64,000 bases of DNA from Candidatus Latescibacterota bacterium (GTDB lineage Bacteria; Latescibacterota; UBA2968; UBA8231), in contig CBDETY010000003.1 of assembly GCA_965243025.1 (NCBI GenBank), positions 5,664,001-5,728,000 of the forward strand, in the 5' to 3' direction. The position numbers were made by a program, and so were the translations under genes. The notes below the pieces were generated by a model. The model made no database searches. It was not told where the DNA came from and saw nothing but the letters and a program-made list of their open reading frames with translations. Positions 37,132-57,820 of this stretch are shown piece after piece. The first letter of the stretch is position 1, and each line of letters starts with the position of its first letter.

Positions 37132-37948
37132 CCAACTCCCTGCTTGAACGACAGTGTATCCGGGGTACAAGTCGCATGGCTATTCTCCTCCTTGACGTTT
37201 ATGCGATGGAACCACGAATACCGACTTGTTTGTATGGAAACTCGAGATGGATTTCCTTCAGGTCAGTCCTGCTGTGTTGGTGTGGCGTGCTCGATCAGCT
37301 TGATAGTCAGGTGCAGGAAAGGTTCCGAACATCAACAGCACCAGGATCACCGGCATCAAGCATAGGGTCGGTATCACCGCACATCAGCCATCACCCACTT
37401 CGTTACCGGCCAAGACAGCGCCAGGATGTTCCAAGCGAGGCCGCGTTGCTTTAGGTAGATGAATGAGGGTCGTTTGAAGATCCTTCGGAAGAACTCGTAG
37501 AACCCTTTTTGGATTTCTCTCGCCCCGTATCCGGTTCAAACCGGGACCTGAGGGACTGTTGATTGCACGCGCACCCGTACGGCGGAACCCGAATGCGCGT
37601 CGAGGATACAGGTTGGTCGACACCCGGGTAGACCCCTACGGAGTCCTTGCATTCCCGGAACTTCCGCTGCACCTTGGGGACCGACCTTAGCAAGCAAAGA
37701 CCATGGGTGTAGGCCTACACTCAGTAAGTAACCTGGGGCAACTACGAAATGGGCAAGCTATCAGGCCTTGACTGGCTGAAACTACATCAATCCCGACCAA
37801 GGCGGGGGCATTATCAACAACGTGAACTTTTGGGCGGAAGAGAACGGGTATCCGCGCAATATCATCGACCTCGAAAACGCATCGTGACGGTCAATGTCGA
37901 GACGATTCGCATGGTGTGGGAGCAGCCGGAGCTGCGGGTGGAAGAGGT

Positions 37949-40099
37949 ATGACTGAGTCGCACGCTGAGCCCCCAGATCTCCTTGGCCGCCTCGAGCCAG
38001 ATATGGCGCGTGAGGAATTGTCGGACCGCGCAGTGGCCGCCCAAAATGAGATACGTGCTCTGCTGGATGCGGAATGTCAGGTTGGCGACCTCATCCGGAT
38101 GGACTTTGGCGAGGCACACATTCTGGTTCACGACGCCCTGCGGCTGCAAGTCGGCGGCGTGCCCCACGGCTGTTTGTTGCTGGCGGCACGAACCCAGGTG
38201 GCAGGTGACCCTCGTGGTGAGGCGGGGGAGGTGATGCCCTCGCTGCTGCTTCTGCGGGTTTTGGGAAGCAGTGCTTTGCCGAATGACATCGAGATGCAGC
38301 AGGCTCGATTCCAAGCTGGACAACGGGCTTCGGACAGCCTGCACAACTGGGATGAGAATCAGAACACAGACCAGTTTACGCTTCACCAGATGCGGTATGC
38401 AGGCCTACGCTGCTCCATCCTCGGAACGTTTCGCATGGTTCTCAGAGGAGACCCCGGGGAGTGGGGCCTCACATTCGGGAGCGACATCGACAACTTCTAC
38501 GCAGGGCAGGGCATGAAGGTATACAAGCCTGTTGGTGAGGCTTTGGAGCGCATCGTCAACTTCACGACGGCCAACGTATCTGATTCGGCCCGTGTTCGGA
38601 TCGGTGAGATCAAGTACGCTGCCGCCCTGGATGCAGGCCGGGCTGAGTCCGTGCCTGTCCAGATGACGACCCGCGATGTCGTCTCTCAGCGCACTGCCCT
38701 GTTCGGTATGACCCGAACCGGGAAGTCGAACACTGTCAAGACTCTCGCCCGCGCAGTTTTCGAGTTGCGGCTGGGGGACGAGACGCCGGAGCGGGTCGCG
38801 CAGCTGATTATCGACCCGAACGGGGAGTACGCGAACGACAACCCACAGGACGAAGGCTGTCTGCGCAACGTAAGGCATCTCCCAGGGGCCAGCTTGGATG
38901 ACGTGGTGACCTACGGTCTGACCCCCCATCCCAACGATCGGGAACGCCGGATCACCAAAATGAACTTTTTTGGCCCTGAGCTCAGTCAACAACCGCCGCG
39001 TAGCGCAGGTGAACTCGACGCGGTGTTGCAGTCCTTGTACATGGGTAAGCAGGTCATCGACGGGCGCCTTGATATGGAAGGGGCCGCGTACATCGCCGCA
39101 TTCCGTGGAACGGAAATGACGGCGCCCCCGGGGGTGACCGACCACGGAGAGTATGTACGCTACCGTCGCGCAGTGATCGTCTATCAGTCCGCCTTGGCCG
39201 CGGCCGGATTCGCCCCGCCTGGGGCCAGTGTTTCTGTGAGCGGGCTATTCAGCCGCGATGTTCGCCGGGCAATGGCTAGCGACTCCGAGTTATCCGGCTT
39301 CGCCGATCAAATCGGAGGGGACCTTAGGTGGGATGCCGCCTCGGAGTTCTGTCGGCGCCTGAGTAAATGGTTCGAGCGAGGAGGAGGAGGGCACCAATTT
39401 GATCGTGAATACCAGTCCTCTCATGACGGGCGTAACTGGAGCGACGATCGCCTCCTGGGCCTGTTGCGCATCTTCGAGAACACGCGAGGGGTTCAGGCGC
39501 TCCGTGAGTGCCGGGAGTGGCACGACCCACAACGGAATGCGGACTACACGGAGGAGATTGTCGCGGATCTCGCGGAGGGGAAGCTGGTCATTCTCGATCA
39601 GGCGCTCGGTGATCCTGTGATGAACGAGCAGTCCGCGGAGCGTATCATGCGCGCGATTTTCGCTCGACAGCAGGTGCGTTTCACGAATCCAGATAGGGGA
39701 CCGGACGGATCGTTCCTGGACCCCGATCCTGTCATCGTTTACATCGAGGAGGCGCACACAGTCCTGCCCCGCGGAAGTGAGGATGACACGCGCAACGTTT
39801 GGGCGCGAACGGCGAAAGAAGGCGCGAAATTCAACATCGGCCTCGTCTACTCGACGCAGGAGCCGTCTTCCGTCCAGCGCAACATCCTTCGGAACACAGA
39901 GAACTGGTTCCTCTCCCACCTCAATAACACGGCAGAGACGCGAGAACTCGACCAGTATAACGACTTCGCGGACTTTAGCGCTGGCATCCGGCGGGTGAAG
40001 GAGATTGGATTTCTCAAGGTGCGGACAATGTCCAGTCCCTACACCCTGCCCGTGCAGATAGATCGCTTCACTGCCCCGCCGGGGCTACCGGGGGACTGA
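37949..40099 (+). CDS. HerA-family (DUF87) ATPase/translocase
   Basis: Walker A GMTRTGKS, IIDPNGEY, Walker B VYIEEAH, KEGAKFNIGLVYSTQEPS. Confidence 0.9.
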   Translation: MTESHAEPPDLLGRLEPDMAREELSDRAVAAQNEIRALLDAECQVGDLIRMDFGEAHILVHDALRLQVGGVPHGCLLLAARTQVAGDPRGEAGEVMPSLLLLRVLGSSALPNDIEMQQARFQAGQRASDSLHNWDENQNTDQFTLHQMRYAGLRCSILGTFRMVLRGDPGEWGLTFGSDIDNFYAGQGMKVYKPVGEALERIVNFTTANVSDSARVRIGEIKYAAALDAGRAESVPVQMTTRDVVSQRTALFGMTRTGKSNTVKTLARAVFELRLGDETPERVAQLIIDPNGEYANDNPQDEGCLRNVRHLPGASLDDVVTYGLTPHPNDRERRITKMNFFGPELSQQPPRSAGELDAVLQSLYMGKQVIDGRLDMEGAAYIAAFRGTEMTAPPGVTDHGEYVRYRRAVIVYQSALAAAGFAPPGASVSVSGLFSRDVRRAMASDSELSGFADQIGGDLRWDAASEFCRRLSKWFERGGGGHQFDREYQSSHDGRNWSDDRLLGLLRIFENTRGVQALRECREWHDPQRNADYTEEIVADLAEGKLVILDQALGDPVMNEQSAERIMRAIFARQQVRFTNPDRGPDGSFLDPDPVIVYIEEAHTVLPRGSEDDTRNVWARTAKEGAKFNIGLVYSTQEPSSVQRNILRNTENWFLSHLNNTAETRELDQYNDFADFSAGIRRVKEIGFLKVRTMSSPYTLPVQIDRFTAPPGLPGD

Positions 40100-41424
40100 T
40101 GCCCTACGGAAACGAGTACGCCAGCGGCGACTCCCTGTGGCGCCTTGTCGAGAGTGAAAGCGTCAAGGAGTTCGAGGGCATGATTCGCCGGGGCGATCCG
40201 GAGGATGCGCCCGAGCCACCGCCTCCGCTAACGCCTCCACGGGGCGTAGACCTAATTTCTCGCATCATCGTCATTGACGGTTCCACGGTCACCCACGCGG
40301 TTCGCAACGGGTACCCCGGCGCTGAAGCGGCGCTGCTCCAGCTGGCTGCTGTCATTATCGACCTTTCGGCGCTGAGGAGCATTCCTCGGGGATCGATCCC
40401 CCGCCCGAGCGCTATTCGCGATATGGAGGACTGCAGAACTCTTGATTCGGTGCTACCGGGCAGGAACGTTGTGCGGCGCAGCGTGCCGGGAGACACGCCG
40501 AGAACCTACTTCCGCTTCACCATTCACGAGATGCTGTCGGGCAGGAAGGTCGACCGTGATCACGAGACGCTGCTCGAGACGATGCGCGCCATTGCTCCCC
40601 CACGGAGCTTTCAGTGCCCCGCGGACGAATGCGAGGAGTCGCTGCCGGAACTCTCCGGCACTGGTCACTGCCCCTGCGAAAGGAAAGTTTTGGTATTCGA
40701 GACCGACAGCTTGCGGTTGCACGAGCGATTCGAAGACTTCGGTTCCTCGGCGCAGGCCTACACAGCCGCACGGCAGGTCGTGGAACACTTGGCAATGGTT
40801 AACATCATGCGCTTCTTTGCGCGGCGGGGCTGGTGGAATGCGTTCCGCACTACCGCCTTCGTGATGGACGGCCCGCTCGCCATTTTTGGGATGCCTGCGT
40901 GGCTCAAGAGTCACGTCCAGAACGAGGTCACCCGCCTGCACGAACTGGCGCTGGAACATGGTGGGCCTGGGGTCCTGCTCTTCGGTGTCGAGAAGGGCGG
41001 TATGTTCCTCGACCATCTCGAGGCGCTGGACCAGAGCGACCAGGAAGGACCTCGCTCCCTGCTCGATCCCGGAACAGCGCTAGCGCCTGACCGCGAGTAC
41101 GTCCACGGCCACATCGCTCTTCGGCCTCTCGACGCCAAACCGCACGGTGACGTAACTGACTATGGCCGCCGGGTGATGTACAAGAATGGGCTTGGGCAAC
41201 ACTCGGTGGTCATGACGCCAATCGTCAACGCCGCAGGAGAGAATCGCGATTGCGTGGAAGAGACCGCGTATCCACGGATAGGCGAGGTGCTCGACATAAT
41301 GGACGAATTCTCCACCTACCTTTACGAGGACGGATTCGCGCCGCTTGTGCGCGCGCACGCTCATGCTGCCATCCCGCTGAAGGCTGGCATCGGGCTTCTC
41401 ACAGAGCTCTTCACAGAGGAATGA
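40099..41424 (+). CDS. NurA-like nuclease with Cys-rich insert
   Basis: IIVIDGS, VMDGPL, GVEKGG, PLVRAHAHA; CPADEC...CPC insert; TGATG overlap with HerA. Confidence 0.8.
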   Translation: MPYGNEYASGDSLWRLVESESVKEFEGMIRRGDPEDAPEPPPPLTPPRGVDLISRIIVIDGSTVTHAVRNGYPGAEAALLQLAAVIIDLSALRSIPRGSIPRPSAIRDMEDCRTLDSVLPGRNVVRRSVPGDTPRTYFRFTIHEMLSGRKVDRDHETLLETMRAIAPPRSFQCPADECEESLPELSGTGHCPCERKVLVFETDSLRLHERFEDFGSSAQAYTAARQVVEHLAMVNIMRFFARRGWWNAFRTTAFVMDGPLAIFGMPAWLKSHVQNEVTRLHELALEHGGPGVLLFGVEKGGMFLDHLEALDQSDQEGPRSLLDPGTALAPDREYVHGHIALRPLDAKPHGDVTDYGRRVMYKNGLGQHSVVMTPIVNAAGENRDCVEETAYPRIGEVLDIMDEFSTYLYEDGFAPLVRAHAHAAIPLKAGIGLLTELFTEE

Positions 41425-42581
41425 GCCGTACCGCCTCGTGCGACATCGACATGCCGAAGTTGACTGGCTTCGGCACCGCCGAGGGCCGATGGGCAAGGCT
41501 TGGCCCATACTACGCGATGTTCCCAGTCGAGTTCGCACGGGACGTCATCGAAAACCTCAGCCAATGCGGCGACACGGTTCTGGATCCGTTCTGCGGCCGC
41601 GGAACCGCCCCGTACGTCGCCATGATTTCGGGCCGCCGCGCCGTCGGGTGCGACATCAATCCGGTTGCTTGGCTGTACGCCGCTGTCAAGACAGACCCGT
41701 GCCCTTTGTACCCCGACGTAAATCGGCGCATCCGCGAGGTTTCCGCCGCCGTACGGCCACGCGACCGGCGCCCGGCGGACGAGTTCCAGGCGCTCGCTTA
41801 TGGGCGGAAGGCGTTGGGTTTCATCAATGCCGCACGCCGAGAGTTGCGATGGCGCGAAAGCCGCCTCGACCGCACCGTCGCTGCCTTCTTACTCCACTAT
41901 CTGCATGCCAAGCTGGGGCAGGGCCTATCAAACCAGATGCGCCCTTCGCGAGCGATGTGTCCTGACTACTCTGTCCGCTGGTGGCGGAAGCGCGGCCTCA
42001 CAAGCCCACCCGACGTTGACGCGGCATCTTTTCTCAGCGACCGGGCCGCTTGGCGCTACGCCAAGGGGATTCCGGAACGTGCCGGGAACGCTAGGTTGGC
42101 GCTGGGCGACGCCGCCGCCGTTCTGCCAGATGCGGGGACAGGTGCCGCGCTCGTTTTTACGTCCCCGCCGTATGTCGGTGTCACCAACTACCGATCCGAT
42201 AACTGGCTGCGGCTATGGGCGTTGGGGGAGGGCCCGCCTCGAGCCGACTGGTCCACAAGCCAGAAGTTCACCAACCCCGAGAAGTACGAGACTATGCTGG
42301 ACGATGTGGTGCGGGCGGCGCGTGACCGAGCGCGTAGCGATGCGGTCTGGTACCTGCGTGTGGACGCTCGGAAGAGGACGCTCGCCGAAGTACGTCGCGT
42401 GACAGCAGCGGTGCTGCCCGGGCATCGTCGATACGAGCGACCATCGCCCTCGCCAAGTCGCACGCAGACAGCCATGTACGGAGACCACGGCGTCAAGCCG
42501 GGAGACGTGGACTTGGTGTACGTACCCCGGACAAGACGGAAACCAGCGTTCCTCAAGGGCTTCCGCCCACGTCGTCGTTAG
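41421..42581 (+). CDS. Amino-DNA methyltransferase (motif I before SPPY)
   Basis: PYYAMFP, VLDPFCGRGT, GCDINP, FTSPPY; ATGA overlap with NurA. Confidence 0.85.
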   Translation: MSRTASCDIDMPKLTGFGTAEGRWARLGPYYAMFPVEFARDVIENLSQCGDTVLDPFCGRGTAPYVAMISGRRAVGCDINPVAWLYAAVKTDPCPLYPDVNRRIREVSAAVRPRDRRPADEFQALAYGRKALGFINAARRELRWRESRLDRTVAAFLLHYLHAKLGQGLSNQMRPSRAMCPDYSVRWWRKRGLTSPPDVDAASFLSDRAAWRYAKGIPERAGNARLALGDAAAVLPDAGTGAALVFTSPPYVGVTNYRSDNWLRLWALGEGPPRADWSTSQKFTNPEKYETMLDDVVRAARDRARSDAVWYLRVDARKRTLAEVRRVTAAVLPGHRRYERPSPSPSRTQTAMYGDHGVKPGDVDLVYVPRTRRKPAFLKGFRPRRR

Positions 42582-42781: not shown

Positions 42782-43912
42782 GTGATAGCGAGTGGTGAAG
42801 TAAGAGTTGGCGATGCTACCGACCTCGGGTTCATTGACGAAGGATCGGTGGACTTGGTTATCACCTCGCCCCCTTATCCGATGATTGAAATGTGGGACGA
42901 GGCCTTCCAGCACCAAATACCCTGGGTTGAAAAAGCTCTGGCAGCCTGCGATGGCCCCAAGGCTTTCGAAATGATGCACAGATTACTCGACGAAGCTTGG
43001 GTGGAGGTATTCCGGGTTTTACGTCCGGGGGGGATTGCCTGTATCAACATTGGTGATGCCACCCGCACCATTGACGGGGATTTTCGGCTTTATTCCAACC
43101 ACTCGCGGATCCTATCTGGATTGCTTCGGGTTGGCTTCGTAAGCCTGCCCGATATTCTCTGGCACAAGCCTACAAACGCGCCTAACAAGTTTTTGGGGTC
43201 TGGTATGCTTCCCGCTGGTGCCTACGTCACCTACGAACATGAGTACATCCTGATCGTGCGAAAGGGCCCCCGCAGGGAATTCAAATCAGCCGCGGAGAAG
43301 AGACTGCGGCGAGAGAGCGCCTTCTTTTGGGAGGAGAGGAATCTTTGGTTCTCCGATGTCTGGTTCGATATCCGGGGAGCGGGCCAAGAGCTCGTCGACG
43401 AAGCTTCGCGCAAAAGAAGCGGTGCCTTTCCCTTTGAGTTGGCTTACCGGCTGGTGTGCATGTATTCAATCAAGGGAGACATGGTGCTGGATCCGTTCGG
43501 AGGTACGGGAATTGCAGCGGCTGCCGCCCTTGCCACGGGACGAAATGCCATCTCGGTGGAACTAGATGGGGCACTACTGCCTGTAGTTCGGTCATTCCTC
43601 CAAGCACTGCCGAAGTTTGCCAACGAGCACATCCAGCAGCGTCTCCGGCGCCACATGGAGTTCGCTCAAAAGAGAATCGCCGAGGGAGGTGCCTTCAAGC
43701 ACTGCAATCGGAACTACGGTTTTCCAGTGGTGACCTCCCAAGAGAGAGAACTCTTCCTGAATGATCTCCTGTCGGTTTGGGAGGAGAACGCTTCGGTAAC
43801 CGTTTTGTATGACAAGGAGCCACAGGCGGAGTTTCTAAAGCAGTGGACACCCGAAGAGGTGGAGGGATACTCTCTCCGTCCGAGAGAATTTCAGGCAGAG
43901 CTGCCGCTATAA
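42782..43912 (+). CDS. Site-specific DNA methyltransferase (beta class, N4C/N6A)
   Basis: VITSPPYP before VLDPFGGTG. Confidence 0.92.
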   Translation: MIASGEVRVGDATDLGFIDEGSVDLVITSPPYPMIEMWDEAFQHQIPWVEKALAACDGPKAFEMMHRLLDEAWVEVFRVLRPGGIACINIGDATRTIDGDFRLYSNHSRILSGLLRVGFVSLPDILWHKPTNAPNKFLGSGMLPAGAYVTYEHEYILIVRKGPRREFKSAAEKRLRRESAFFWEERNLWFSDVWFDIRGAGQELVDEASRKRSGAFPFELAYRLVCMYSIKGDMVLDPFGGTGIAAAAALATGRNAISVELDGALLPVVRSFLQALPKFANEHIQQRLRRHMEFAQKRIAEGGAFKHCNRNYGFPVVTSQERELFLNDLLSVWEENASVTVLYDKEPQAEFLKQWTPEEVEGYSLRPREFQAELPL

Positions 43913-43916
43913 TCTC

Positions 43917-44498
43917 TCAGAAGTCGAAACTGAACGATACGCCGCCTTTCTTCTTCTCGTAGATGATCATTCCGGAATCGATAGTCTCGGGAAGCATGTC
44001 CATGGTCGAATAGGTGGTGGGCTTTACCGAAACGGGTGTGTCTCCGATGTAACCGTCGATCCCTTGAGCTTCCTCTTCGGCGGATGCCAGCCGATAGGAG
44101 GTCCTTTTCATTTCGGCGACCCGTGCTATCAGTGCCTCTTGGAAGCAGAGGCCAGTGAAGGTTTTGGCGAGCACCAGATCCTCTACCCATTCACGGACCA
44201 TCTGCTTGTCGATCAGCAGAATCGCTTCCTGGAGTTTTTTAAGCATCGAATAGATTCGCTCAGTCGCCTCCTCGATTGCCGCTGGGTTTCTCTGAAGATA
44301 CCAAGCCTTCCATTCCTCGAAGTTCCTTCCAGAGAACTCGGTGAAGAGTTCGGTCATCTGGCCAACAACGCGCGGGCGTGTCCCTCCTGCATTCTGGTTT
44401 GCCAGATTCATGATCTGAGTGGTGTACTTTGGAAACTCGGGGACTCGGCCAACCGCGAAGTCGACGATTTCCGCAGTCTTGATTTTCCCTTTGGGCAT
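43917..44498 (-). CDS. MjaI-family type II restriction endonuclease
   Basis: PKYTTQIMNLANQNAGGTRPRVVGQM, GIDGYIG...VSVKP PD-(D/E)xK-like core; convergent with MTase. Confidence 0.8.
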   Translation of the reverse strand: MPKGKIKTAEIVDFAVGRVPEFPKYTTQIMNLANQNAGGTRPRVVGQMTELFTEFSGRNFEEWKAWYLQRNPAAIEEATERIYSMLKKLQEAILLIDKQMVREWVEDLVLAKTFTGLCFQEALIARVAEMKRTSYRLASAEEEAQGIDGYIGDTPVSVKPTTYSTMDMLPETIDSGMIIYEKKKGGVSFSFDF

Positions 44499-44675: not shown

Positions 44676-44904
44676 CCAACGGGCTCGTCGAAATCCCCGT
44701 CTCCCTTTCCGCTTGGCGGCCCCGAGCAGGAAATTCATGGAGTTGGCCCCAGTTTGCTCCTGAATGCCCGCCAACCTTTGCTCAGGACGTGGGCTGTTCC
44801 AAGCCGCCCATAAAGGAGCACCACCTTCTTCCCCTTGCGGTTCTCTGGAGTTGACCCGATTTCGTGGACACTTCATTTCTTGAAAGAAAGGAGGGTGTCC
44901 AACC

Positions 44905-45219
44905 ATGCCGAAATCCCATTCCCCTTATCCGCCCGAATTCCGGCAACAGATGGTGGAACTGGTACGGGCGGGTCGTAGTCCGGAGTCGCTGGCCAAGGAA
45001 TTCGAGCCGTCCGGGCAGACGATCCGCAACTGGGTGATCCAGGCCGAACGCGATGAGGGGGTGCGCCGCGACGGCCCCTCCCGTCCGGAGCAGGAGGAAT
45101 TGCGGCGCCTTCGCCGTGAGAACAAGCAACTGCGTATCGAACGGGAGATCCTGGCAAAAGCCACGGCCTGGTTCGCTCGCGAGGCCGACTCGGAGTCCGG
45201 CCCGTCTACGAGTTCATGA
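44905..45219 (+). CDS. IS3 transposase OrfA (HTH)
   Basis: YPPEFRQQMVEL, ELRRLRRENKQLRIEREIL. Confidence 0.92.
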   Translation: MPKSHSPYPPEFRQQMVELVRAGRSPESLAKEFEPSGQTIRNWVIQAERDEGVRRDGPSRPEQEELRRLRRENKQLRIEREILAKATAWFAREADSESGPSTSS

Positions 45220-46100
45220 GAGCGCACCAGGCCGACTTTCCGGTGCTGACGATGTGCCGCGTGCTGAAGGTCTCCCCCAGCGGCTACTACGCCTGGTTGA
45301 AACGCCCGCCTTCGGGTCGCGCCCGGGCCGATGCCGTGCTCAAGGCACGTGTCGAGCAGATCCACCAACACTCCCGGGGCACTTATGGAGCGCCGAGGAT
45401 CCGGGCCGAACTGGCCGAGGAGGGCCAAGCCATCGGTCGCAAGCGCATCGCCCGATTGATGCTTGAGCTCGGGGTGCGCGGGGTATGCGCCCGCCGCCGC
45501 CTCTCCACCACCCGTCGCGGCCGGCAGGGCCGGGTCGCCTCCGACCTGGTCAAGCGGGTGTTTTCGGTCTCCGGCCCGAATCGCCTGTGGGTTGCCGATC
45601 TCACCTACATTCCCACGAGGTCGGGGTTTTTGTATCTGAGCGTGGTCATGGACGCCTGGAGCCGCCGAGTGGTGGGCTGGGCCATGGCGAACCATATGCG
45701 TACGCAGTTGGTGCTGGACGCCCTTGACATGGCCCTGCACCGGCGCCGTCCCAAGAAAGTGATTCACCACTCCGACCACGGCAGTCAGTATACGGCCCTG
45801 GCCTTCGGGAAGCGCTGTCGCCAGGCCGGGGTACGTCCGTCGATGGGATCGGTCGGTGACTGCTTCGACAATGCTCTGTGCGAAAGCTTTTTCGCCACCT
45901 TGGAAAGGGAGCTGCTGGATCGTCATCGGTTTGCTACCCAGTCGCAAGCCCAGCGTACGGTTTTCGAATACCTGGAAGGCTGGTACAACCCCCATCGGCG
46001 GCACTCGGCCCTGGGACAACGATCTCCCATCAACTACGAGAGGTATCATTTATCAAGGGGTATAAATCCAAACGGAAAACTGTCCGTGAAATCGGGGTAA
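45216..46100 (+). CDS. IS3 transposase OrfB (DDE)
   Basis: WVADLTY, HHSDHGSQY, DNALCESFF, YNPHRRHSALG. Confidence 0.95.
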   Translation: MRAHQADFPVLTMCRVLKVSPSGYYAWLKRPPSGRARADAVLKARVEQIHQHSRGTYGAPRIRAELAEEGQAIGRKRIARLMLELGVRGVCARRRLSTTRRGRQGRVASDLVKRVFSVSGPNRLWVADLTYIPTRSGFLYLSVVMDAWSRRVVGWAMANHMRTQLVLDALDMALHRRRPKKVIHHSDHGSQYTALAFGKRCRQAGVRPSMGSVGDCFDNALCESFFATLERELLDRHRFATQSQAQRTVFEYLEGWYNPHRRHSALGQRSPINYERYHLSRGINPNGKLSVKSG

Positions 46101-46140
46101 CCTCACTCGGGGCTGGTCGACCTATTAGAAACAGGGTGCT

Positions 46141-46569
46141 CTACTTACGCCACCTGCCTAGCGACAGACGTTCGCATACACGGTTTCGCCAGGAGAGCCA
46201 GAAAGCTTTAGGGTTCGGTTGAGACACAATAAGCCGCCTTCGCTCGACTTGGGCATACTCCGAATGACGGCTTGGATCGATTCTAGGCGCCCAAACGACG
46301 GTGTTATTCCAAATATAGTAGTGACTGCCGCAGCCCGAATTAGCCCACACGGACCCACCTGTGGCCCCTCCCAAGGAGACCGATTTGCCGTCAAAGTGAA
46401 CGTGCCAACGGCTGGGGTGGAGGGACAGGACGGTCAGATCGCCGCAGCCGCATGGACAGCGCAGGTTGACGGTTCGGTGCTTGTGGCTGATCCAGAGCTC
46501 GCCAGCTTTGATTGTGTCAAAGTCTGGCATTAGGTCTACGAAGATCGGTCGGACTTCCATGGGCGTCAT
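46141..46569 (-). CDS. DUF6527-like protein (putative Ubl-processing peptidase)
   Basis: GELWIS...LRCPCGCG...CGSHYYI; last gene of Ubl-ThiF operon. Confidence 0.75.
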   Translation of the reverse strand: MTPMEVRPIFVDLMPDFDTIKAGELWISHKHRTVNLRCPCGCGDLTVLSLHPSRWHVHFDGKSVSLGGATGGSVWANSGCGSHYYIWNNTVVWAPRIDPSRHSEYAQVERRRLIVSQPNPKAFWLSWRNRVCERLSLGRWRK

Positions 46570-46578
46570 GCCTTCGAG

Positions 46579-47766
46579 TCAGGCCGCCCTGGCAATCCGG
46601 GGTGTCTCGAGACGGAATTTGTGAAGGAACGAAGCGGATTCGGAAACGTACTGTTCCGTGCGGCGCCGCCACTCCATCATGGCAAGCGACGCCGCCAAAG
46701 CGTTCACTTCCGGGAGCTGGACGTTGCGATAGCCTGGCGCATTGCCCTCGACCCTGGCGTTCGGTATGGCATCTTGCCATGCCAGAGAGCCGGCGGCATT
46801 GGCAATTGTCGTGACCGCGCCGCTAACCGCATCGTTTTCCAAGGTAATACTCACGCCCGAATCTATGAACGGAACCTCCTCCTCCGAGAGCACGGCGTAC
46901 ACGACGTCCTGACGCGGCGAGTCACAGTCAATCCGTTGGTCGATACACACGAAAGCATAGTCGACAGAATGTTCGGACAGGAATTCGGCGAATCTTGTTG
47001 AATTGTCGACTCGGATGGCATGCGCGTGGATGCCTTCCCGGAGGGAAGCGTACTTGGAGTGGTAGTAGTCCACTTTGCGCGGGCGCGCCTTACGCAGCGA
47101 TTCAATCTCCTCGCAAGTCGGTGCTCCCGGCGCACGCATGAGGTTGTGCCAGTCCACCTCGTCGGAATCGAGAAGATGGATCTCTGCCACAGGCGTCTTC
47201 ACCATGAGGTCAAGTAAGTAGGCCCCCGTCCCGCCCAGACCGATAATCGCAACGCGCTGATCGCGGATACGGTCTTGCACTGGGCCTATCGCCGCTCGGG
47301 CCTCGTAAGTGTTGGGAATCTTAAACGGACCCCGGTCTACGAGGGAAGTGGGTTCGTGGAAACCGGCCGCCGAAACGGCCCCGACGACTTGCTTTGCATA
47401 GCGGTAGATCACGTCGTTTGGTGAAGCATCGTCCTCTGGACTAGCTTGGCTACCTCTCCGAATAGAAATGTTGGACCAGGTTTCGCCGTCACCGCCTATG
47501 TGGTGCCCGATAGGTGTTCCATTCGCGTTGTACACGCAGCCATCCAGTGCTTCGTCAGGGGTGACGGAGACGGCATGGACTGCCCCACCTATGCGTTTAT
47601 TCGGCTTCCCGCTCTCCGGGTCGAAGGATTTTTCGATCTTGCAGGTACCAACGATCTCGTCTTTGAGCAGACAGGGAACCCTCTCGGCTGCCACAACGTC
47701 GTTGCCCACCGTCACCGTAAAACCAATCTGCCCCGCGAACTGGAAGAGGCGATCCTTACGAGACAT
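46579..47766 (-). CDS. ThiF/E1-family adenylyltransferase with N-terminal DUF6791-like domain
   Basis: VAIIGLGGTG, LLDSDEVDWHNLMRAPG, FVCID, PFIDSG, YRNVQLPEVNALAA. Confidence 0.85.
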   Translation of the reverse strand: MSRKDRLFQFAGQIGFTVTVGNDVVAAERVPCLLKDEIVGTCKIEKSFDPESGKPNKRIGGAVHAVSVTPDEALDGCVYNANGTPIGHHIGGDGETWSNISIRRGSQASPEDDASPNDVIYRYAKQVVGAVSAAGFHEPTSLVDRGPFKIPNTYEARAAIGPVQDRIRDQRVAIIGLGGTGAYLLDLMVKTPVAEIHLLDSDEVDWHNLMRAPGAPTCEEIESLRKARPRKVDYYHSKYASLREGIHAHAIRVDNSTRFAEFLSEHSVDYAFVCIDQRIDCDSPRQDVVYAVLSEEEVPFIDSGVSITLENDAVSGAVTTIANAAGSLAWQDAIPNARVEGNAPGYRNVQLPEVNALAASLAMMEWRRRTEQYVSESASFLHKFRLETPRIARAA

Positions 47767-48004
47767 GTTCGGGGTCTACCGAGAAGCTCGTGCCGTCCTT
47801 GACTTCAACGTCCTTGCCAGGCAGGAGTACGCCGTCGTTGCCTTTCAAGTCGTTTTCGTAGTCGATTCCGGGCGTGCCGATAATGTGCTTTCCCTCCGCC
47901 TCGTGAAGCATGTTCCAGATCTTTACGATCTGTTCATACGTCACGACAGGGCCAGGGACCTTGTACTCTCGACCGCTCACGATAATCTGTGTGTCACCAT
48001 TCAT
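47756..48004 (-). CDS. Multi-ubiquitin-family ubiquitin-like protein
   Basis: IIVSGREYKV...VTYEQIV...LLPGKDVEVKDGTSFSV; GGAG RBS; overlaps ThiF start. Confidence 0.75.
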   Translation of the reverse strand: MNGDTQIIVSGREYKVPGPVVTYEQIVKIWNMLHEAEGKHIIGTPGIDYENDLKGNDGVLLPGKDVEVKDGTSFSVDPEHVS

Positions 48005-48136
48005 AGGTTGCTCCTCCGATTTTGGAATGCATAGGTTACGGTCAGGATCAATCCGGGGCCTGGGGGACCATTGAGGTCACACAAGCTCCATCTGTTCCTG
48101 CCCATCGAGCGCGATCAGCCTTGCCGTGTGTCGTCA

Positions 48137-48174
48137 CAACGGCATATGATATGTCGTTGAAAACCCAATGTCAA
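48137..48174 (-). promoter_or_regulatory. Sigma70 promoter of the Ubl operon with overlapping palindromic operator
   Basis: Minus strand TTGACA (48174-48169)-N17-TATCAT (48151-48146); inverted repeat CAACGGCATA-TGA-TATGTCGTTG at 48137-48159. Confidence 0.7.
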
Positions 48175-48245
48175 GGGCGTATTAGATCTTTCCTATTTGC
48201 CTTCTTGTGTGCTATTCTTGTGGGGGAGATCGGTCGTGAACCGTA

Positions 48246-49010
48246 ATGGCTGTTGAAATCGCCGGTTTTGCCCAAGCGCTAGCCCGTTGTCAGGCCTTTG
48301 AGTCCGTCGATGCTGGCGAGCTTGAGAACGTGCTCTCAAGTGGCCAGGAACCACTGGAGATGCTGTTCGTTGAGCCTTCGGCTGATGAGCCACTCATTCG
48401 CTCGGGAGGGCCCTTTAGGCACCTGTTCTTCGTTTTACACGGCATGATCGTGCCCTGGCAGTATCCTCACTCGGAACTCTCATCCCCTTTCCTCATAGGG
48501 GATCACGAATTCATGATGAATGCGGAGCGCTGGGTGGCTTCCTACTCCGCTGCAACGGAAGCGACGGTCGTGGGCATCCCCGTCTCCACGATGCGACACG
48601 CCGTTGAAAAGATGCCCGAGATTCGGTCCAATTTGTACCTATTGTTGTTGAGGCGAATGGCGCGCTACTACTGGATTTCACTCGCTACCAACGGGAGTCC
48701 ACCACCGAGGGTAGCGGCCGCTCTGATCTCCCGTCTGGCCCTCAATGGACTGGATCACGGCCGCGAGCGCGAGATCGTCGTGCGGCAGCGAGACATCGTC
48801 CGCCTCACAGTCATGTCTCGCTCGGCCGTCGCGGGGGGGATTGCAACACTCGTTTCCGCTGACCTCATCCGCACCGGGGACGACAACAGTGAAAGATTCT
48901 CAGGGCTCGTACATGTCCCGGACGTTGACCGGTTAAAGGACTACGCTCTCAGCGAAGTTCGGGGAAAAGAGGTCCTCCCACTTCTCCAGTCGTACAAAGA
49001 CTACCAATGA
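48246..49010 (+). CDS. CRP/FNR-like regulator (cNMP-binding fold plus HTH)
   Basis: LIRSGGPFRHLFFVLHG...IGDHEF...ASYSAATEATVVGIP; HTH RQRDIVRLTVMSRSAVAG. Confidence 0.7.
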   Translation: MAVEIAGFAQALARCQAFESVDAGELENVLSSGQEPLEMLFVEPSADEPLIRSGGPFRHLFFVLHGMIVPWQYPHSELSSPFLIGDHEFMMNAERWVASYSAATEATVVGIPVSTMRHAVEKMPEIRSNLYLLLLRRMARYYWISLATNGSPPPRVAAALISRLALNGLDHGREREIVVRQRDIVRLTVMSRSAVAGGIATLVSADLIRTGDDNSERFSGLVHVPDVDRLKDYALSEVRGKEVLPLLQSYKDYQ

Positions 49011-49104
49011 ACCCCTACACCCGGTTTGCAGGTAGCGTTGGTGGGACCACCCCTTGGAAGCGACCAACAAGCCGGTAACCGGGCTCCCTCGAGAAAACCC
49101 AACC

Positions 49105-50592
49105 GTGCCACCCGTCCGCGTTCGCATAGCCCCCTCGCCGACCGGAGCCCCCCACGTCGGCACCGCCTACATCGCCCTGTTCAACATGGCCTTCGCCCGC
49201 CGCCGCGGCGGCGAGCTGGTCCTCCGCATTGAGGACACCGACCAGACGCGCTCCTCCGACGAGCACGAGGAACGGCTGATAGAGGCCCTGCGCTGGGCGG
49301 GCATCGAGTGGCAGGAGGGCCCCGATGTCGGCGGCCCCCACGGTCCCTACCGCCAGAGCGAGCGGATCCAGATCTACTCCGAGTACGCCAAGCAGCTCGT
49401 CGACCAGGGCTGCGCCTACTACTCCTTCACGACCCCCGAGGAGCTGGCCGCCTGGCGGAAGCGCAAGGACTCGGATGAACCCGCCCCGTACGACGCCGAG
49501 CGCGAGCAGTCCACCGAATCCGCGCGCAAGCAAATCGACGCCGGGACTCCGCACGTGATCCGCATGAAAACCCCGCGCGAGGGATCGGTAACGGTCACCG
49601 ACACGCTGCGCGGGGAGATCCCGTTCGACCTGGCCGGCCTCGACGACCAGGTGCTGCTGAAGTCGGACGGGTTCCCCACCTATCACCTCGCCGTCGTCGT
49701 CGACGATCACCTGATGGAGATCAGCCACGTCATCCGCGGCGAGGAGTGGATTCCGTCGACGCCGAAACACCTGCTGCTCTACGACTGGCTGGGCTGGGAC
49801 CCCCCGGAGCACACCCACCTGCCGCTGCTGCTCAACCCGGACCGCTCCAAGATGTCGAAGCGGCGGAACCCGACCTCCATCGACTTCTACCGCCGCGCCG
49901 GGTACCTCCCCGAGGCCCTGCTCAACTACCTGGCGCTGATGGCCTACCCGCCGGGGGAGGGGGGCGAGGAGAAGTTCCCGCTGTCCGGGCTGGTCGACCG
50001 CTTCGATCTCGGGCGGGTCAACCTCGGCGGCTCGGTGTTCGACCTCGAGAAGCTGAGCTGGCTCAACGGCCGCTACATCCGCGAGGACCTCAGCGCCGGC
50101 CAGCTGCTGGACAAGCTGAAGGAATGGGCCCTGAACGACGGTTTCCTCGGCGAGATGATCCCGCTGATGCAGCCGCGCATGCAGACCCTCGGCGACTTCA
50201 TGCCGGCCTGCTCCTTCTTCTTCGCCCGCGAGGTGGAGCCGGCCGCGGAGGATCTCGTGCCCAAGAAGCGGGAGCCCGCGGAGGCGGCGCAGATGCTCCT
50301 GACCGCGGTCTGGGCGCTTCAGGAGGTCTCCCCCTGGGAGGTCTCCGGGGTCGAGGCGGCGGTCCAGCGGGTGAGCTCGTTCTGGGAGTGGCCGGTGCGC
50401 GAGGTGACCCGGCCGATGTTCGCCGCGCTCATGGGACGGCCGGTCGGGCCGCCGCTCTACGAGTCGATCGTCCTGCTCGACATCGACCTGACGCGGGCGC
50501 GGCTGCAGGCCGCGGTCGGGGTGCTCGGGGGGGTCTCCAGGAAGAAGGAGCGGGCCCTGGAGAAGGAGTGGTCTTCCCGGGGCCGGGGCTAG
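49105..50592 (+). CDS. gltX: Glutamyl-tRNA synthetase
   Basis: RVRIAPSPTGAPHVG, LRIEDTD, YRQSER, HVIRGEEW, KMSKR. Confidence 0.96.
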   Translation: MPPVRVRIAPSPTGAPHVGTAYIALFNMAFARRRGGELVLRIEDTDQTRSSDEHEERLIEALRWAGIEWQEGPDVGGPHGPYRQSERIQIYSEYAKQLVDQGCAYYSFTTPEELAAWRKRKDSDEPAPYDAEREQSTESARKQIDAGTPHVIRMKTPREGSVTVTDTLRGEIPFDLAGLDDQVLLKSDGFPTYHLAVVVDDHLMEISHVIRGEEWIPSTPKHLLLYDWLGWDPPEHTHLPLLLNPDRSKMSKRRNPTSIDFYRRAGYLPEALLNYLALMAYPPGEGGEEKFPLSGLVDRFDLGRVNLGGSVFDLEKLSWLNGRYIREDLSAGQLLDKLKEWALNDGFLGEMIPLMQPRMQTLGDFMPACSFFFAREVEPAAEDLVPKKREPAEAAQMLLTAVWALQEVSPWEVSGVEAAVQRVSSFWEWPVREVTRPMFAALMGRPVGPPLYESIVLLDIDLTRARLQAAVGVLGGVSRKKERALEKEWSSRGRG

Positions 50593-51944: not shown

Positions 51945-52041
51945 GGAGCCTGGCTGCCTCGTGCGTGTCGGTAAAACGTAAATCCCAACCGCCCTCATTT
52001 TTGAATCACCTGTCGATAGGTGGACCCTGAGAGCCGACCCA

Positions 52042-52287
52042 TCAAACACCTACGGGAATATCTAACTCAACGATTTCCATATTCATCCTGTGCAAGCCAT
52101 CCGGGAGAGCGTCTCCATGCTCCCTACAGGATTCGATTAGTTTTCTTGCCACGTCTTGAGCAATTTCAACCGTTTCAGCCACTGTTCGCCCTTGGGCTAC
52201 CAAGCCGGCGAAATCCTCTGAGGTAGCCAGATACTGATCGTTTTCTACACGTCTGATTTGAAGATGCAGCCGGTATTCCTCCGACAT
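52042..52287 (-). CDS. HicB-family antitoxin (orphan)
   Basis: YLATSEDFAGLVAQGRTVAETVEIAQDVA. Confidence 0.85.
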   Translation of the reverse strand: MSEEYRLHLQIRRVENDQYLATSEDFAGLVAQGRTVAETVEIAQDVARKLIESCREHGDALPDGLHRMNMEIVELDIPVGV

Positions 52288-52338
52288 TTTCTACTCTCGT
52301 TTGAGCGATGCTCAATGTGAGGTGGATTTTCTCTGCGC

Positions 52339-52432
52339 TTTCGCCTGACGTTATGCCGGTTTGCGAACCGGGAAGCGGTTGCCGAAGGCCAAAGCGCCAA
52401 AGCGTCGATGATGAATCGCAAACCGACTTAAG
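52339..52432 (-). repeat. attC-like site 2 (after DUF433)
   Basis: Imperfect hairpin CGGTTTGCGA...TCGCAAACCG; ends GCATAAC-GTCAGGCGAAA on minus strand. Confidence 0.6.
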
Positions 52433-52652
52433 AAACTGGTAGAGGATGAGCTTCTTCTGCTTCTACGAGCTCCTCAGCGTACTCAAGGGCTGCCCGTACA
52501 TCCGCCTCTACAATGCCATATTCCTCACAGACTTCATCTGGGGTTGCTCCACCTGCAAGGCTCCCGATAATTCGGTGCACTGGCACTCGGGTCCCCCGCA
52601 CCACAGGCTTGCCATGACGGATCGAAGGATCGATCATGATTCGTTCATTCAT
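52428..52652 (-). CDS. DUF433 antitoxin-like protein
   Basis: RIMIDPSIRHGKPVVRGTRVPV...DVRAALEYA. Confidence 0.9.
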   Translation of the reverse strand: MNERIMIDPSIRHGKPVVRGTRVPVHRIIGSLAGGATPDEVCEEYGIVEADVRAALEYAEELVEAEEAHPLPVS

Positions 52653-52700
52653 TCTATGACCTCCATTCTTTTACTTCACGCATACGAAACATGACTCCCA

Positions 52701-52793
52701 TTTTCACATAACGTTCTCGCCGTGCCCGAACCGCGAAGCGGTTGGGCGAAGGGCCCTATTGCCCGAAGCCGGGCACGGACGTGTTATGTGCCC
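52701..52793 (-). repeat. attC-like site 1 (after EVE gene)
   Basis: Minus strand GGGCACATAAC...CCGTGCCCG...CGGGCACGG...AAC-GTTATGTGAAAA, long imperfect palindrome with AAC/GTT cores. Confidence 0.75.
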
Positions 52794-52829
52794 GTTGCTT
52801 GCCCTCTCGGTACGATCAGTGCGGGTTCC

Positions 52830-53924
52830 TTAGGCTTCCTCTGCGTATTCCTCAAGCACTGCGTCCGACAGATAGGAAAGGTGCTGCTCGTCAGATACTT
52901 CTCTCACGCTATCGTAAGAGATAAAGGAACAGATCTCCGACAGCGGAGCACGTTCGAGTAATGAAAAGACCGGCCGCTGAATTTCTTGCAGAACCTTCTC
53001 CTTTCGACCGTACGGGGCAACAATGTGAAGGCGGATGTCCATGTTTGGCTGAAGTGCCAGCAAGTCCGCCATTCGGAGTATCCCGGAATAAATCGCTGTT
53101 GAGTGTTCAACTTCGAAGGCCCTGACAATTGATCTACGCCGCAACCAAAGTACATCAATTTGTTCAATTGTCTTCAAGGTGGTTTCGTCGTAATTCAGTG
53201 GCAGTGCATCCAACAACACTCCCTCGTCTGGCGCCCACTCCTGGATAATATTGGAGCGATCGCTACGTGGAAGCCAGACTGTGAATCCCATGGCCTCCCC
53301 AATCCGAGCTAGGAGTGCCTGTATCTGATAGGATTCACGAATAGTTTGTTCATCTCGCGCGTCTTCCTCTGACTCGTCCTCCTGAGGTACGGAGACAGAA
53401 ACCACCTTGTCTTCCCGCCGGATTCTCTGTCCAACCAGCTTCCGGTAGTGTTCCTCGTCCAATTCGTATGTGTGTCCACCTATTTTCTGGCGTTCCAGCA
53501 ACTCTTCTAAGAACCGGCCGTCTTCCTCGGATAGAGGATTAAGGCTGTTTCGCATTTTGCCGGTCCAATGCGAGCTGTTCTTTTCGTAGCTCTGAGTGAA
53601 TGAAAGAGCCTCCCAAACGTGGTCCTCGTGAATCGGGACAGCCTTCTCCTTGGGCAGCCAAACCTGCGGTTTTACACGAAATCGGATCACGAAGGGGTCA
53701 TCCTCAGGATAGAATAGAGGCGTGTTACCCTCGAAGTATTCGCTTGTGACCTCCAGGATACCCACCCAGCGGGAAAGCTTGGTTACGTAGCAAACAAGCT
53801 TGTCACCACGCCCGATCTGGCTCGCGGCGTTCTTCTGGCGTGGTCTGAACCCGGAGATGCTCTGATCTGATTGGGTAAAAGCCTCGTATGTCTCAGGCGA
53901 AAAGAGATCGGTGTAATAAGCCAT
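52830..53924 (-). CDS. EVE-domain protein with C-terminal PD-(D/E)xK-like domain (candidate modification-dependent nuclease)
   Basis: GDKLVCYVTKLSRWVGILEV (EVE-like); QIDVLWL...AFEVEHST. Confidence 0.7.
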   Translation of the reverse strand: MAYYTDLFSPETYEAFTQSDQSISGFRPRQKNAASQIGRGDKLVCYVTKLSRWVGILEVTSEYFEGNTPLFYPEDDPFVIRFRVKPQVWLPKEKAVPIHEDHVWEALSFTQSYEKNSSHWTGKMRNSLNPLSEEDGRFLEELLERQKIGGHTYELDEEHYRKLVGQRIRREDKVVSVSVPQEDESEEDARDEQTIRESYQIQALLARIGEAMGFTVWLPRSDRSNIIQEWAPDEGVLLDALPLNYDETTLKTIEQIDVLWLRRRSIVRAFEVEHSTAIYSGILRMADLLALQPNMDIRLHIVAPYGRKEKVLQEIQRPVFSLLERAPLSEICSFISYDSVREVSDEQHLSYLSDAVLEEYAEEA

Positions 53925-54009
53925 ATTGATACTCGTGTGGTGGTTTCAGAGCTGTTGAATCATTCTCGAAACGAATGACAAAAAAGCTGCAATGGCACAT
54001 AACTACCGA

Positions 54010-54160
54010 TTAACGATCGGCGTTCACTTCGAGTTGGACCCCCCTCGTGCTGCTGAATCCGGCTGATGACCTCGAACAGGTTGCGGGTGTGGGGATTGCC
54101 GGACGGTCCGAACATGCGCATCAGACTCTTGGGCGGCTTGAAGTCACGGGTAAGCGGCAT
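54010..54160 (-). pseudogene. Internally deleted HTH antitoxin/regulator
   Basis: MPLTRDFK fused directly to PPKSLMRMFGPSGNP...NLFEVI. Confidence 0.6.
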
Positions 54161-54207
54161 GGTTCATTTCTCTTGACCGCGCCGGGGGTGGGGTGTGCTG
54201 CGGTTGC

Positions 54208-54416
54208 TCAAGCGCTTAACGATCGCGCCACGGTTTCGGGATTTTCCGAAGCAATCTTGAGCAGAGCTCGGGCAGGACCCTCCGGACGGCGGCGTCCCTG
54301 CTCCCAATTCTGCAGGGGTCCATCTGAACCGTGCGTCCTGGCTTCAGCTTGCCTCGCTTGATCGCTCCGGCCTGCTTGACGCTGGCTGCAAGTTGGTCAA
54401 AGTCGCGCTCATTCAT
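54208..54416 (-). pseudogene. Internally deleted NadS/HigA-like HTH antitoxin
   Basis: MNERDFDQLAASVKQAG...MDP joined out of frame to LQNWEQGRRRPEGPARALL. Confidence 0.7.
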
Positions 54417-54453
54417 ACCAGATAGGTTACCTCCTTCCGGAGATCTTGGAAAT

Positions 54454-54705
54454 TCAGCTCGCTGCGTGTAATTCCTCGCGCAATACTCGACGCAGAGTAT
54501 CCTCGTCAACAGGAGGCTTCCTCTTCCCAAGGTAATCTCTCAATGCCTCGTTGATCATGGTTTGATAACCTGTTCCCGCCTCTTCGGAAAATGAACGAAA
54601 GGCATCCAGGACGTCGTTATCTACATACATGGTTATTCGCGTTTTTCCTCTTTGCGGGACTACTGCCCCTCGTCTCCCACGGCTGAAATCATATTCCTGT
54701 TTCAT
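54454..54705 (-). CDS. BrnA-family antitoxin
   Basis: MKQEYDFSRGRRG, KTRITMYVD, GYQTMINEALR. Confidence 0.9.
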   Translation of the reverse strand: MKQEYDFSRGRRGAVVPQRGKTRITMYVDNDVLDAFRSFSEEAGTGYQTMINEALRDYLGKRKPPVDEDTLRRVLREELHAAS

Positions 54706-55166: not shown

Positions 55167-56870
<1,704 letters not shown>

Positions 56871-56890
56871 GGGATCGGAATGGCGGCGGG

Positions 56891-57820
56891 CTAGCGGATC
56901 AGCCAGGGGGCGTCCGGCGGGCTGAACTCGTCCTTGGGAGGCAGGAACTGGCGCAGGTGCCGGCAGCCGTAGGCGAACCCATCTAGGCCGGGCATGCCGC
57001 GGTCCTCGTTCTCGCAGCAGAGGACGTAGTCGTACCCCGATTCGACCAGGGCGTTGGTGATCTTCGCCCAGTCGAGATCGCCGCGGCCCGGCACGCGGTA
57101 CTGCCACCACCAGTTGCCGATGACGCCCTGGCGGTAGAGCATGCGCGGGCTCACCTCGCAGTCCTTGACGTCGGCGAAGTACCACTTGCCGGAGTACTCG
57201 CGGATGACGTCCTCTGCCGGCAGCATCATCATCCAGACCCAGTGCGAGGGATCGCAGGAAAGGCCGATGAAGTCGGAGGGAACCGCGTCGAGGATGCGGT
57301 CCCACATCTCCGGGTTGCAGCCGATGTTCCCCATGCGCACGGCCACGTCGAGGGCGATTTTGACGCCGGTCTCCTCGGCTTCGCGGGCGATCGGGGTGAA
57401 CATCTCCCGGTAGCGTTCGACCAGCTCGTCGCAGCGGTCGGTCGGGTTGCCCGGTGGGGAGGAGTACATGCCGTAGAAGACGCCGTTCCTGACCGGGGCG
57501 CCGCTGCCGGTGATCACCACCGGGCACTCGAGCGCCGCGGACGAGCGCAGCGCCTTCTTCAGGCGCAGCGACTCCCTCTCGCGGATCTCGGGGTCGTCGT
57601 CGAGGAGGTTGCAGTGGGCGGCGATGCAGGAGAGGTAGAGGTCGCTGCCGGAGAGGGTCTCGCGCACCTCGGCGGGTCCTTCGGTGAGGATCCGGTCGGA
57701 GTCGAGCACGCCGTTGTCGGTCAGGCGCACGCAGTCGAAATCGTGCGCCCTTGCCCAGGCGGCGCACTGTTCGAGGCTCCAGCCGCCGGCTCCCGCGGTG
57801 GTGTAGAAGCTGATGTCCAT
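56891..57820 (-). CDS. Sugar phosphate isomerase/epimerase (IolE/xylose isomerase-like TIM barrel)
   Basis: [22 protein letters not shown]. Confidence 0.8.

Follow-up and report, generated by a model that had tools for sequence, protein, structure and literature searches.

In a 64,000-nt window of the genome of a Candidatus Latescibacterota bacterium (assembly GCA_965243025.1, contig CBDETY010000003.1, positions 5,664,001 to 5,728,000; coordinates below are those of the window), a bacterial ubiquitination-like (Bub) operon on the minus strand is faced by a divergent gene for a CRP/FNR-type regulator. We consider it probable, if far from secure, that this Type II Bub operon became wired to a regulator/promoter module of the kind that otherwise accompanies antiphage systems that signal by cyclic oligonucleotides (CBASS) through a swap of the module's cargo, and that the CRP-like regulator represses the Bub promoter. 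According to this model, the CBASS cargo would have been replaced by Bub at the start codon of the cargo's first gene, and the strong promoter of the module would now drive the Bub genes, transcription starting near 48138 and giving a 5' leader of ~130 nt. A dimer of the CRP-like protein, bound between about 48137 and 48174, would hold this promoter off until binding of a ligand to the sensor barrel, or another modification during infection or stress, lifts repression.

The case for a cargo swap is made by the DNA between the two transcription units. Homology of the Bub cassette to DNA from other phyla extends from 46139 or 46241 to 48004-48028, while that of the regulator module covers 48087-49004, with a left end that is the same in CBASS-linked loci and in a further genome, G012. 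Between these limits of homology lies a junction of ~60 bp (48029..48086) related to neither side. Immediately inside the module, alignment A1 points to remains of the former cargo gene, which is TIR-SAVED in relatives: its ribosome-binding site and its ATG, now part of a four-codon open reading frame (ORF; 48089..48100, minus strand): CATCTGTTCCTGCCCAT of the window matches the TIR-SAVED start-codon region in four loci (L001, L002, L003 and L005), and the similarity is lost past the ATG (48089-48091). What the window has in common with the CBASS-linked loci comprises the regulator leader, both promoter regions, and the TIR-SAVED leader, ribosome-binding site and ATG. Judged by these alignments, the CRP-like gene together with its ~160-bp promoter region is a separate, portable module. 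The junction is real and persistent and no assembly artefact, because contigs of three other studies span it: one from run X5 (47789-49164, 1 difference), one from run X8 (47533-48857, 0 differences) and one from run X9 (47869-48408, 41 differences and 7 gaps, ~91% identical). Run X1 may represent the sample from which the assembly derives. The regulator remnant of G012 (locus L033, C2:3768000-3787000), at 9082-9680, is in decay, with part of its interior deleted and its reading frame broken, and its module boundary is the same; in the cargo position, G012 has genes for a DUF2806 protein and for a DUF6602/NucC-like nuclease.

The regulator belongs to a subfamily that appears to be small and sharply separated, with homologs in 372 clusters at 90% identity and a family profile that is matched by 103 of 1.84 billion 50%-identity representative proteins at E 1e-3. 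All 23 titled genome records carrying it are metagenome-assembled genomes (MAGs) of Chloroflexota (Dehalococcoidia or SAR202), the rest being metagenome contigs. We surveyed 23 CRP-like loci in genome_contigs (21 of them full-length) and 15 in metagenome_contigs, which left 30 after duplicate removal. A divergent CBASS or MBL operon lies upstream of the regulator in 14 of the 21 full-length genome_contigs loci. Ten of these carry a type II CBASS with TIR-SAVED, CD-NTase and Cap2 and two another type II CBASS (L010, with a nuclease-SAVED effector and JAB, and L020); a type III CBASS with HORMA and a Trip13-like ATPase (L021) and an MBL-type operon with an E2-E1-JAB fusion (L016) occur once each, and the remaining seven loci have nothing recognisable upstream. 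Locus L004, identical with L011, does carry the CBASS operon. Among the metagenome loci, CBASS or MBL operons were found in 11 of 15 and a CBASS-type E2 in one, and the non-redundant tally stands at 19 of 30 loci with CBASS or MBL (plus one with a CBASS-type E2). The association is still seen at an identity as low as 45% (L127). A maximum-likelihood tree puts the window's regulator into a clade with 100/99 support whose seven other rows are all CBASS-linked. A regulatory link between the CRP-like protein and a defence operon is likely, since its family regularly partners CBASS and MBL operons, that is, operon kinds that share the regulatory modules CapW, CapH+CapP and CapK+CapS with Bub. CapW/BrxR, CapH+CapP and CapK+CapS are described as shared among CBASS, MBL, Bil and Bub operons (10.1101/2024.11.21.623953; PMC13373217).

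Some features of these partner operons are worth recording. The MBL-type operon behind the regulator (L016:1516-6632, L119 and L120) encodes a 379-aa protein (PADLOC RTasMBL, LmuA), followed by a 719-aa Prok-E2_A + ThiF + JAB fusion; in L016, an insertion sequence (IS; DDE_Tnp_1_4) separates the two genes. No cyclase was found in the MBL operons of the family, with Pfam returning 0 families for the 379-aa protein of L016 and PADLOC returning RTasMBL, LmuA and Avs1a only. Besides, the CBASS cargo behind the CRP-like regulator appears to be damaged often: the TIR-SAVED effector is broken into ORFs of 181 and 246 aa in L009 (4344-5846), and it is truncated at about residue 311 in L007, where IS copies lie nearby.

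The regulator itself (48246..49010, plus strand, 254 aa) starts 241 bp from bubA. Its original assignment as a cNMP-fold helix-turn-helix (HTH) protein was borne out by structure prediction. The match to the Pfam cNMP_binding model (E 0.003, 17.9 bits) lies under the cut-off of 27.5 bits; an AlphaFold2 (AF2) model built on 11 homologs (pLDDT 77.7) matches CRP/FNR proteins over its full length, including CRP, GlxR, FNR, Clr and DNR (470 Foldseek matches at E <= 0.001), with M. tuberculosis CRP as the best (4a2u, E 7e-12, probability 1.0). The secondary structure of the model and the Foldseek matches give a layout of N-terminal cNMP-type beta-barrel, long dimer helix and C-terminal winged HTH. 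In a profile search of PDB sequences, residues 47-210 matched residues 26-198 of E. coli CRP, and the profile alignment places the phosphate-binding R82-S83 of CRP on W96-V97, which is invariant in the regulator family. Since W71, Q72, Y73, P74, S76, E77, L78 and W96-A102 are all invariant in this family, the alignments suggest that the ligand pocket has been remodelled. The recognition helix reads TVMSRSAVA and is unlike the motifs of both CRP (RE..R) and FNR (E..SR). The copy in the window is intact, having kept 46 of the 46 residues that are invariant in 30 relatives. It is an accessory rather than a core gene: a search of 40 related genomes turned up one copy, which is broken, and the GC content at third codon positions (0.667) is the same as that of bubBD, against 0.934 in gltX.

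Facing the Bub operon, the predicted sigma-70-like promoter was confirmed at 48146..48174 (minus strand), with a -35 box TTGACA (48174-48169), a 17-nt spacer and a -10 box TATCAT (48151-48146) that together fit the consensus at 11 of 12 positions. A promoter scan of 45900-49200 returned three promoter-like sites against 1.3 +/- 1.1 in shuffles. CBASS-linked relatives keep the hexamers as TTGACT / TATnCT, and conservation among close relatives is highest in a block, CAAAGTCAAT, that includes the -35 box. That the regulator binds and controls this promoter is plausible, and repression is the most likely mode, because the promoter is so close to consensus and the known regulators of such operons are repressors (10.1101/2024.11.21.623953). 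The palindrome that the original prediction had taken for the operator is present at 48137..48159, where it overlaps the -10 box and the probable start of transcription, as CAACGGCATAT-G-ATATGTCGTTG with 10 of 11 arm positions complementary. It is statistically unusual, in that dinucleotide shuffling of the 241-bp intergenic region gave one as good in 17 of 2000 cases, and the 64-kb window holds 13 equally good palindromes; we retain it as a lineage-specific candidate operator.

A search for shared dyads in 32 upstream regions (5-mer half-sites, spacers of 0-12, comparison with shuffles) brought up two other candidates, both of which were rejected. TATGT-N10-ACAwA occurs in 10 sequences, against 3-4 in shuffles, mostly from the closest relatives, and is absent from the window; GTAGT-N4-ACTAC was found in L020 and L119 only. 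The window also contains three related 8-mers, TGCCGTTG (complement of 48137-48144), TGTCGTTG (48152-48159) and TGACATTG (complement of 48166-48173), for which we claim no operator function. On the plus strand, 48210..48218 may tentatively be read as an extended -10 element (TGcTATTCT) of the regulator's own promoter: alignment A1 shows no variation in its TGCTA core, and more distant relatives have GCTATACTTG-like boxes at an equal distance, while the promoter scan made no call there.

Several observations weigh against the proposal that the CRP-like protein represses Bub from a captured module. The original prediction had called for a neighbourhood survey. In 185,579 species genomes there were 484 BubBD loci, and none of the 80 best has a CRP-like gene within 5 kb (tblastn, E 1e-3); Bub genes adjoin none of the 38 other CRP-like loci (23 from genome_contigs and 15 from metagenome_contigs). 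In the collections searched, the CRP-like gene is thus attached to Bub in this one lineage only, the sole exception to a complete lack of co-occurrence being the same-lineage copies in sequencing runs; further CRP-like-Bub pairs are hinted at by two cases in which a CRP-like and a BubBD homolog agree in the length of their longest contig (P0004/P0142 at 5,734,604 and P0027/P0206 at 99,700). Ten of the 30 non-redundant family members, some of them with short flanks, have no recognised upstream defence operon. As to the operator, no equivalent of the palindrome occurs in the orthologous promoters of L007-L012 or G012, and the motifs from the dyad search are confined to the closest relatives, with none in the window. 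CRP/FNR proteins are, moreover, more often activators than repressors. Finally, the regulator could be an inert leftover, as illustrated by the decay of the cargo-less copy in G012.

Taken to its end, this last point would make the adjacency a matter of chance, with the CRP-like gene an orphan after loss or replacement of its CBASS cargo and with Bub expressed constitutively from the strong promoter or from one of its own. Such an account would fit the uniqueness of the pairing and the decaying orphan in G012, as well as the IS3-family element at the other end of the cassette, a mark of a rearrangement-prone area. It would also fit the lack of a CD-NTase (SMODS, PF18144) in the window's operon and in the whole genome, which is 96% complete. 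Yet we regard it as unlikely: the regulator has retained every family-invariant residue, the same junction in the ~91% identical X9 contig implies that there was time for a decay that did not happen, and the exchange left promoter and leader exactly in place. In addition, close Bub relatives normally have a regulator (9/14), and the Bub operon of the window has no other. If the regulator is functional, it might still work in the opposite direction, as an activator of the CRP class II type that turns on the operon from a site over the -35 region. Most characterised CRP/FNR proteins do activate, and the conserved block CAAAGTCAAT sits where such a protein would bind. However, a promoter with 11 of 12 consensus positions and a 17-nt spacer should need no activator, and an abortive-infection cargo such as TIR-SAVED would be expected under tight repression, as reported for CapW and CapH+CapP (10.1101/2024.11.21.623953), which renders activation improbable in our view.

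The signal is a separate matter. According to the original prediction, a CRP-like repressor would link a nucleotide signal to protein conjugation, for instance by feed-forward from a CBASS-type messenger that is sensed as a cyclic (oligo)nucleotide. The tie to a defence operon is the part of this idea that fared well, thanks to the CBASS and MBL partners of the family, and the cNMP-binding-type barrel and the usual proximity of the family to cyclic-oligonucleotide synthases speak for nucleotide sensing as well. On the other hand, the Arg-Ser pair of CRP is replaced by Trp-Val, the cNMP_binding score stays below the cut-off, and the family also pairs with MBL operons in which no cyclase was found, leaving the coupling of nucleotide to conjugation unsupported as worded and, in our estimate, very unlikely. 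A CBASS messenger in particular would not be the signal here, since the genome lacks a CD-NTase. A wider and rather speculative extension, to which we assign a low probability, is that the CRP-fold family constitutes a fourth class of immune-operon switches (for CBASS II/III, MBL and Bub) whose remodelled barrel senses a small molecule, perhaps a signal of infection derived from nucleotides or else the messenger made by the operon itself, with the module as a docking site where cargo is exchanged at the start codon.

The Bub operon was found as predicted, as a three-gene minus-strand unit encoding a ubiquitin-like protein (Ubl), an E1 and a DUF6527 protein. The resemblance to Bub operons noted at the time can be narrowed down: the operon is a complete Type II Bub, and the biochemistry of this family has been described before. 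Such operons, formerly called 6E.2, consist of BubA, BubBD (an E2-E1 fusion) and BubE (DUF6527), usually without a JAB peptidase (10.1101/2024.11.21.623953; 10.1101/2024.11.21.623966), and ATP-dependent Ubl conjugation via oxyester intermediates has been reported for the E. coli and Citrobacter systems (10.1101/2024.11.21.623953). In the E. coli system, the chemistry involves the crossover-loop Tyr Y342, the E2 Ser S106 and the adenylation Arg R219 (10.1101/2024.11.21.623953). The BubE protein of Type II Bub has a C4 zinc site and acts as a Ser-His peptidase (10.1101/2024.11.21.623953). In the window, the bubA stop and the bubBD start overlap by 11 bases, and bubE begins 9 bases past the bubBD stop.

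The first gene, bubA (47756..48004), encodes a single-domain Ubl of 82 aa. Its match to Multi_ubiq (PF14452; 3.6e-8, 33.9 bits) exceeds the curated cut-off of 24.5 bits, in agreement with the predicted beta-grasp fold; against PDB sequences, BubA gave no match at E <= 1. As had been noticed, the protein ends in ...DPEHVS, with a terminal Ser. Of 13 close orthologs, 12 share the full C-terminal SFSVDPEHVS and all 13 the ...VDPEHVS end, and 75 of the 80 Type II Bub loci contain, somewhere in the locus, a plus-strand ORF of at least 55 aa with an F-x-[VA]-x5-S end. Ser rather than Gly at this position is the norm for the family; the accessible part of 10.1101/2024.11.21.623953 mentions a conserved Gly for Type I Bub alone.

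In bubBD (46579..47766, 395 aa), an E2-like (DUF6791-type) N-domain would be fused to a ThiF/E1 adenylation domain. The ThiF match (6.8e-14) spans residues 163-327 and leaves ~160 extra N-terminal residues, as expected from the original description, and the protein also matches NCBIfam PRK06153 (1.3e-53). The YRNVQ motif pointed out earlier forms part of GYRNVQLPE, of which G345-Y346-R347-N348-V349-Q350 are invariant in 11 of 11 aligned homologs, like R211. The N-domain gave no direct DUF6791 match in the Pfam search. An AF2 model of BubBD from 11 sequences (pLDDT 54) was too poor for a fold search or for confirming the E2 fold, and hhalign was used instead: a profile of the window's BubBD clade aligned with DUF6791+ThiF BubBDs over residues 12-379 (probability 100, E 1.7e-43), with Y346 opposite their invariant Tyr. 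Besides, Citrobacter BubCD (PDB 9ea4) matches the window's BubBD at E 3e-4. Candidates for the E2 serine are S98, S101 and S109. The best is S109 (Ser in 10 of 11 homologs, Cys in one), at most 3 residues from the invariant Ser106 of L067-type proteins in the hhalign alignment, although the loop alignment is uncertain. PADLOC, which has no Bub model, matched BubBD weakly to Cap2-type E1-E2 models over ~50 residues of the ThiF fold.

The last gene, bubE (46141..46569, 142 aa), encodes a predicted DUF6527 Zn-ribbon Ser-His peptidase (PF20137, 3.1e-13) and was found by tblastn in 78 of the 80 Bub loci. Both motifs of the original prediction are there, CPCGC as C38, C40 and C42 and SHY as S82-H83-Y84; the SHY serine would not be the catalytic one. 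Since the spacing of C38/C40/C42, S73, C80 and H83 is exactly that of C57/C59/C61, S92, C99 and H102 in Citrobacter BubE (10.1101/2024.11.21.623953), the catalytic pair is assigned to S73/H83 instead of S82.

Compared with the Type II Bub prototype, BubA-BubBD-BubE of E. coli ZDHYS365 (Ye, Gong, Chambers, Corbett; 10.1101/2024.11.21.623953), gene set and order are the same and JAB is likewise missing, and the crossover Tyr (Y346 here, Y342 there), the adenylation Arg (R211) and the C4 and Ser-His residues of BubE are kept. The two differ in that the window's BubA has one beta-grasp domain and that of E. coli three (10.1101/2024.11.21.623966), and in an N-domain that in the window is too diverged for a direct Pfam match to DUF6791. 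Closest to the window are 14 cassettes with BubBD identities of 60-73%, from MAGs of Chloroflexota, Gemmatimonadota, Acidobacteriota, Proteobacteria, Latescibacterota and Actinomycetota. These near-identical cassettes (L034-L047; BubA 72-90% identical to the window) occur in at least six phyla, which points to a recent horizontal spread. As the original prediction stated, Bub operons often adjoin HTH/metallopeptidase regulators: HTH and Peptidase_M78 genes, paired or fused (CapH/CapP-like), lie upstream in 9 of the 14, and CapH+CapP accompany 31% of 544 Bub operons (10.1101/2024.11.21.623953). The CRP-like regulator, by contrast, does not appear to be a general part of Bub systems.

The regulator of the window's operon is CRP-like, instead of the CapW, CapH+CapP or CapK+CapS known from Bub operons (10.1101/2024.11.21.623953; PMC13373217). 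The position is the same as for these modules, with a divergent regulator at an immune-operon promoter and one family serving CBASS, MBL and Bub. The fold is another: CapW is a WYL protein, CapH+CapP combine XRE-HTH with an M78 peptidase and CapK+CapS are STAS/GHKL proteins, whereas the CRP-like protein consists of cNMP-type barrel, dimer helix and winged HTH. Neither Pfam nor PADLOC revealed a WYL, XRE-HTH + M78 or STAS/GHKL domain in the 254-aa protein or beside it, and the resemblance is thus positional only. The input probably differs as well, with the known modules responding to DNA damage and the CRP-like protein having a small-molecule-type sensor domain. It shares domain order and full-length fold with CRP/FNR regulators (E. 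coli CRP, M. tuberculosis CRP, C. glutamicum GlxR and FNR), but it is very distant from them (E about 1e-4 to PDB members) and has not kept the Arg-Ser phosphate contacts. With type II CBASS of the TIR-SAVED, CD-NTase and Cap2 kind, the window has in common the slot behind the same promoter region and also an E2-E1 fusion enzyme; it lacks the CD-NTase, SAVED and TIR genes.

Full-text literature searches, whose scope was the articles and not the supplementary neighbour tables, brought up no regulator of the CRP/FNR type described as dedicated to CBASS, MBL or Bub, and the main text of a survey of Bub-operon regulators (PMC13373217) has 0 occurrences of 'Crp'. The family of defence-operon switches is apparently undescribed, and it would be a fourth regulator family used like CapW, CapH+CapP and CapK+CapS, with a different fold and probably a different input. 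Of the modules that silence and switch on abortive-infection and conjugation immune operons, three are known, all linked to DNA damage. By recurring ahead of several CBASS types and of MBL, and once ahead of Bub, a regulator with a ligand-binding fold offers a testable new input route; were it indeed a small-molecule switch, defence expression would come under metabolite or second-messenger control. The window also provides a clear case, from nature, of an exchange of defence cargo in which regulator and promoter stayed in place. To the knowledge of Bub little is added, the operon being an ordinary member of a characterised family.

The surroundings agree with the defence island that had been predicted. 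GC content is 0.53-0.58 in the Bub stretch versus 0.69 in gltX. An IS3-family element (44846-46105), with an HTH_Tnp_1 ORF, an rve integrase ORF, inverted ends (TG...CA) and probably a target duplication of 3 bp (CTC), sits 35 bp downstream of bubE. It is absent from the X5 and X9 contigs, where 44842 (X5) or about 44813 (X9) is joined to about 46106-46138, X5 joining 44842 directly to 46106; the insertion would therefore be recent. Once the element is subtracted, the Bub cassette is directly adjoined by a MjaI-type type II restriction-modification pair (42782-44498), made up of an N6_N4 methyltransferase (PADLOC MTase_II, 5e-137) and a RE_MjaI endonuclease (1.6e-62). Further out, 37916-42581 encodes a HerA-like ATPase (727 aa), a 441-aa protein without family match and a second N6_N4 methyltransferase, which may be another defence system of the island. 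Beyond gltX, a second low-GC patch (0.51-0.55) at 52000-54500 includes an ORF on the minus strand (52830-53924) with a weak PADLOC REase_II match (4.6e-13). Lastly, a few kb from the ordinary gltX at 49054-50592, a protein of the Glu/Gln-tRNA synthetase type (929 aa) is encoded at 55167-57956 (minus strand), whose N-terminus is extended by ~400 residues without family match.

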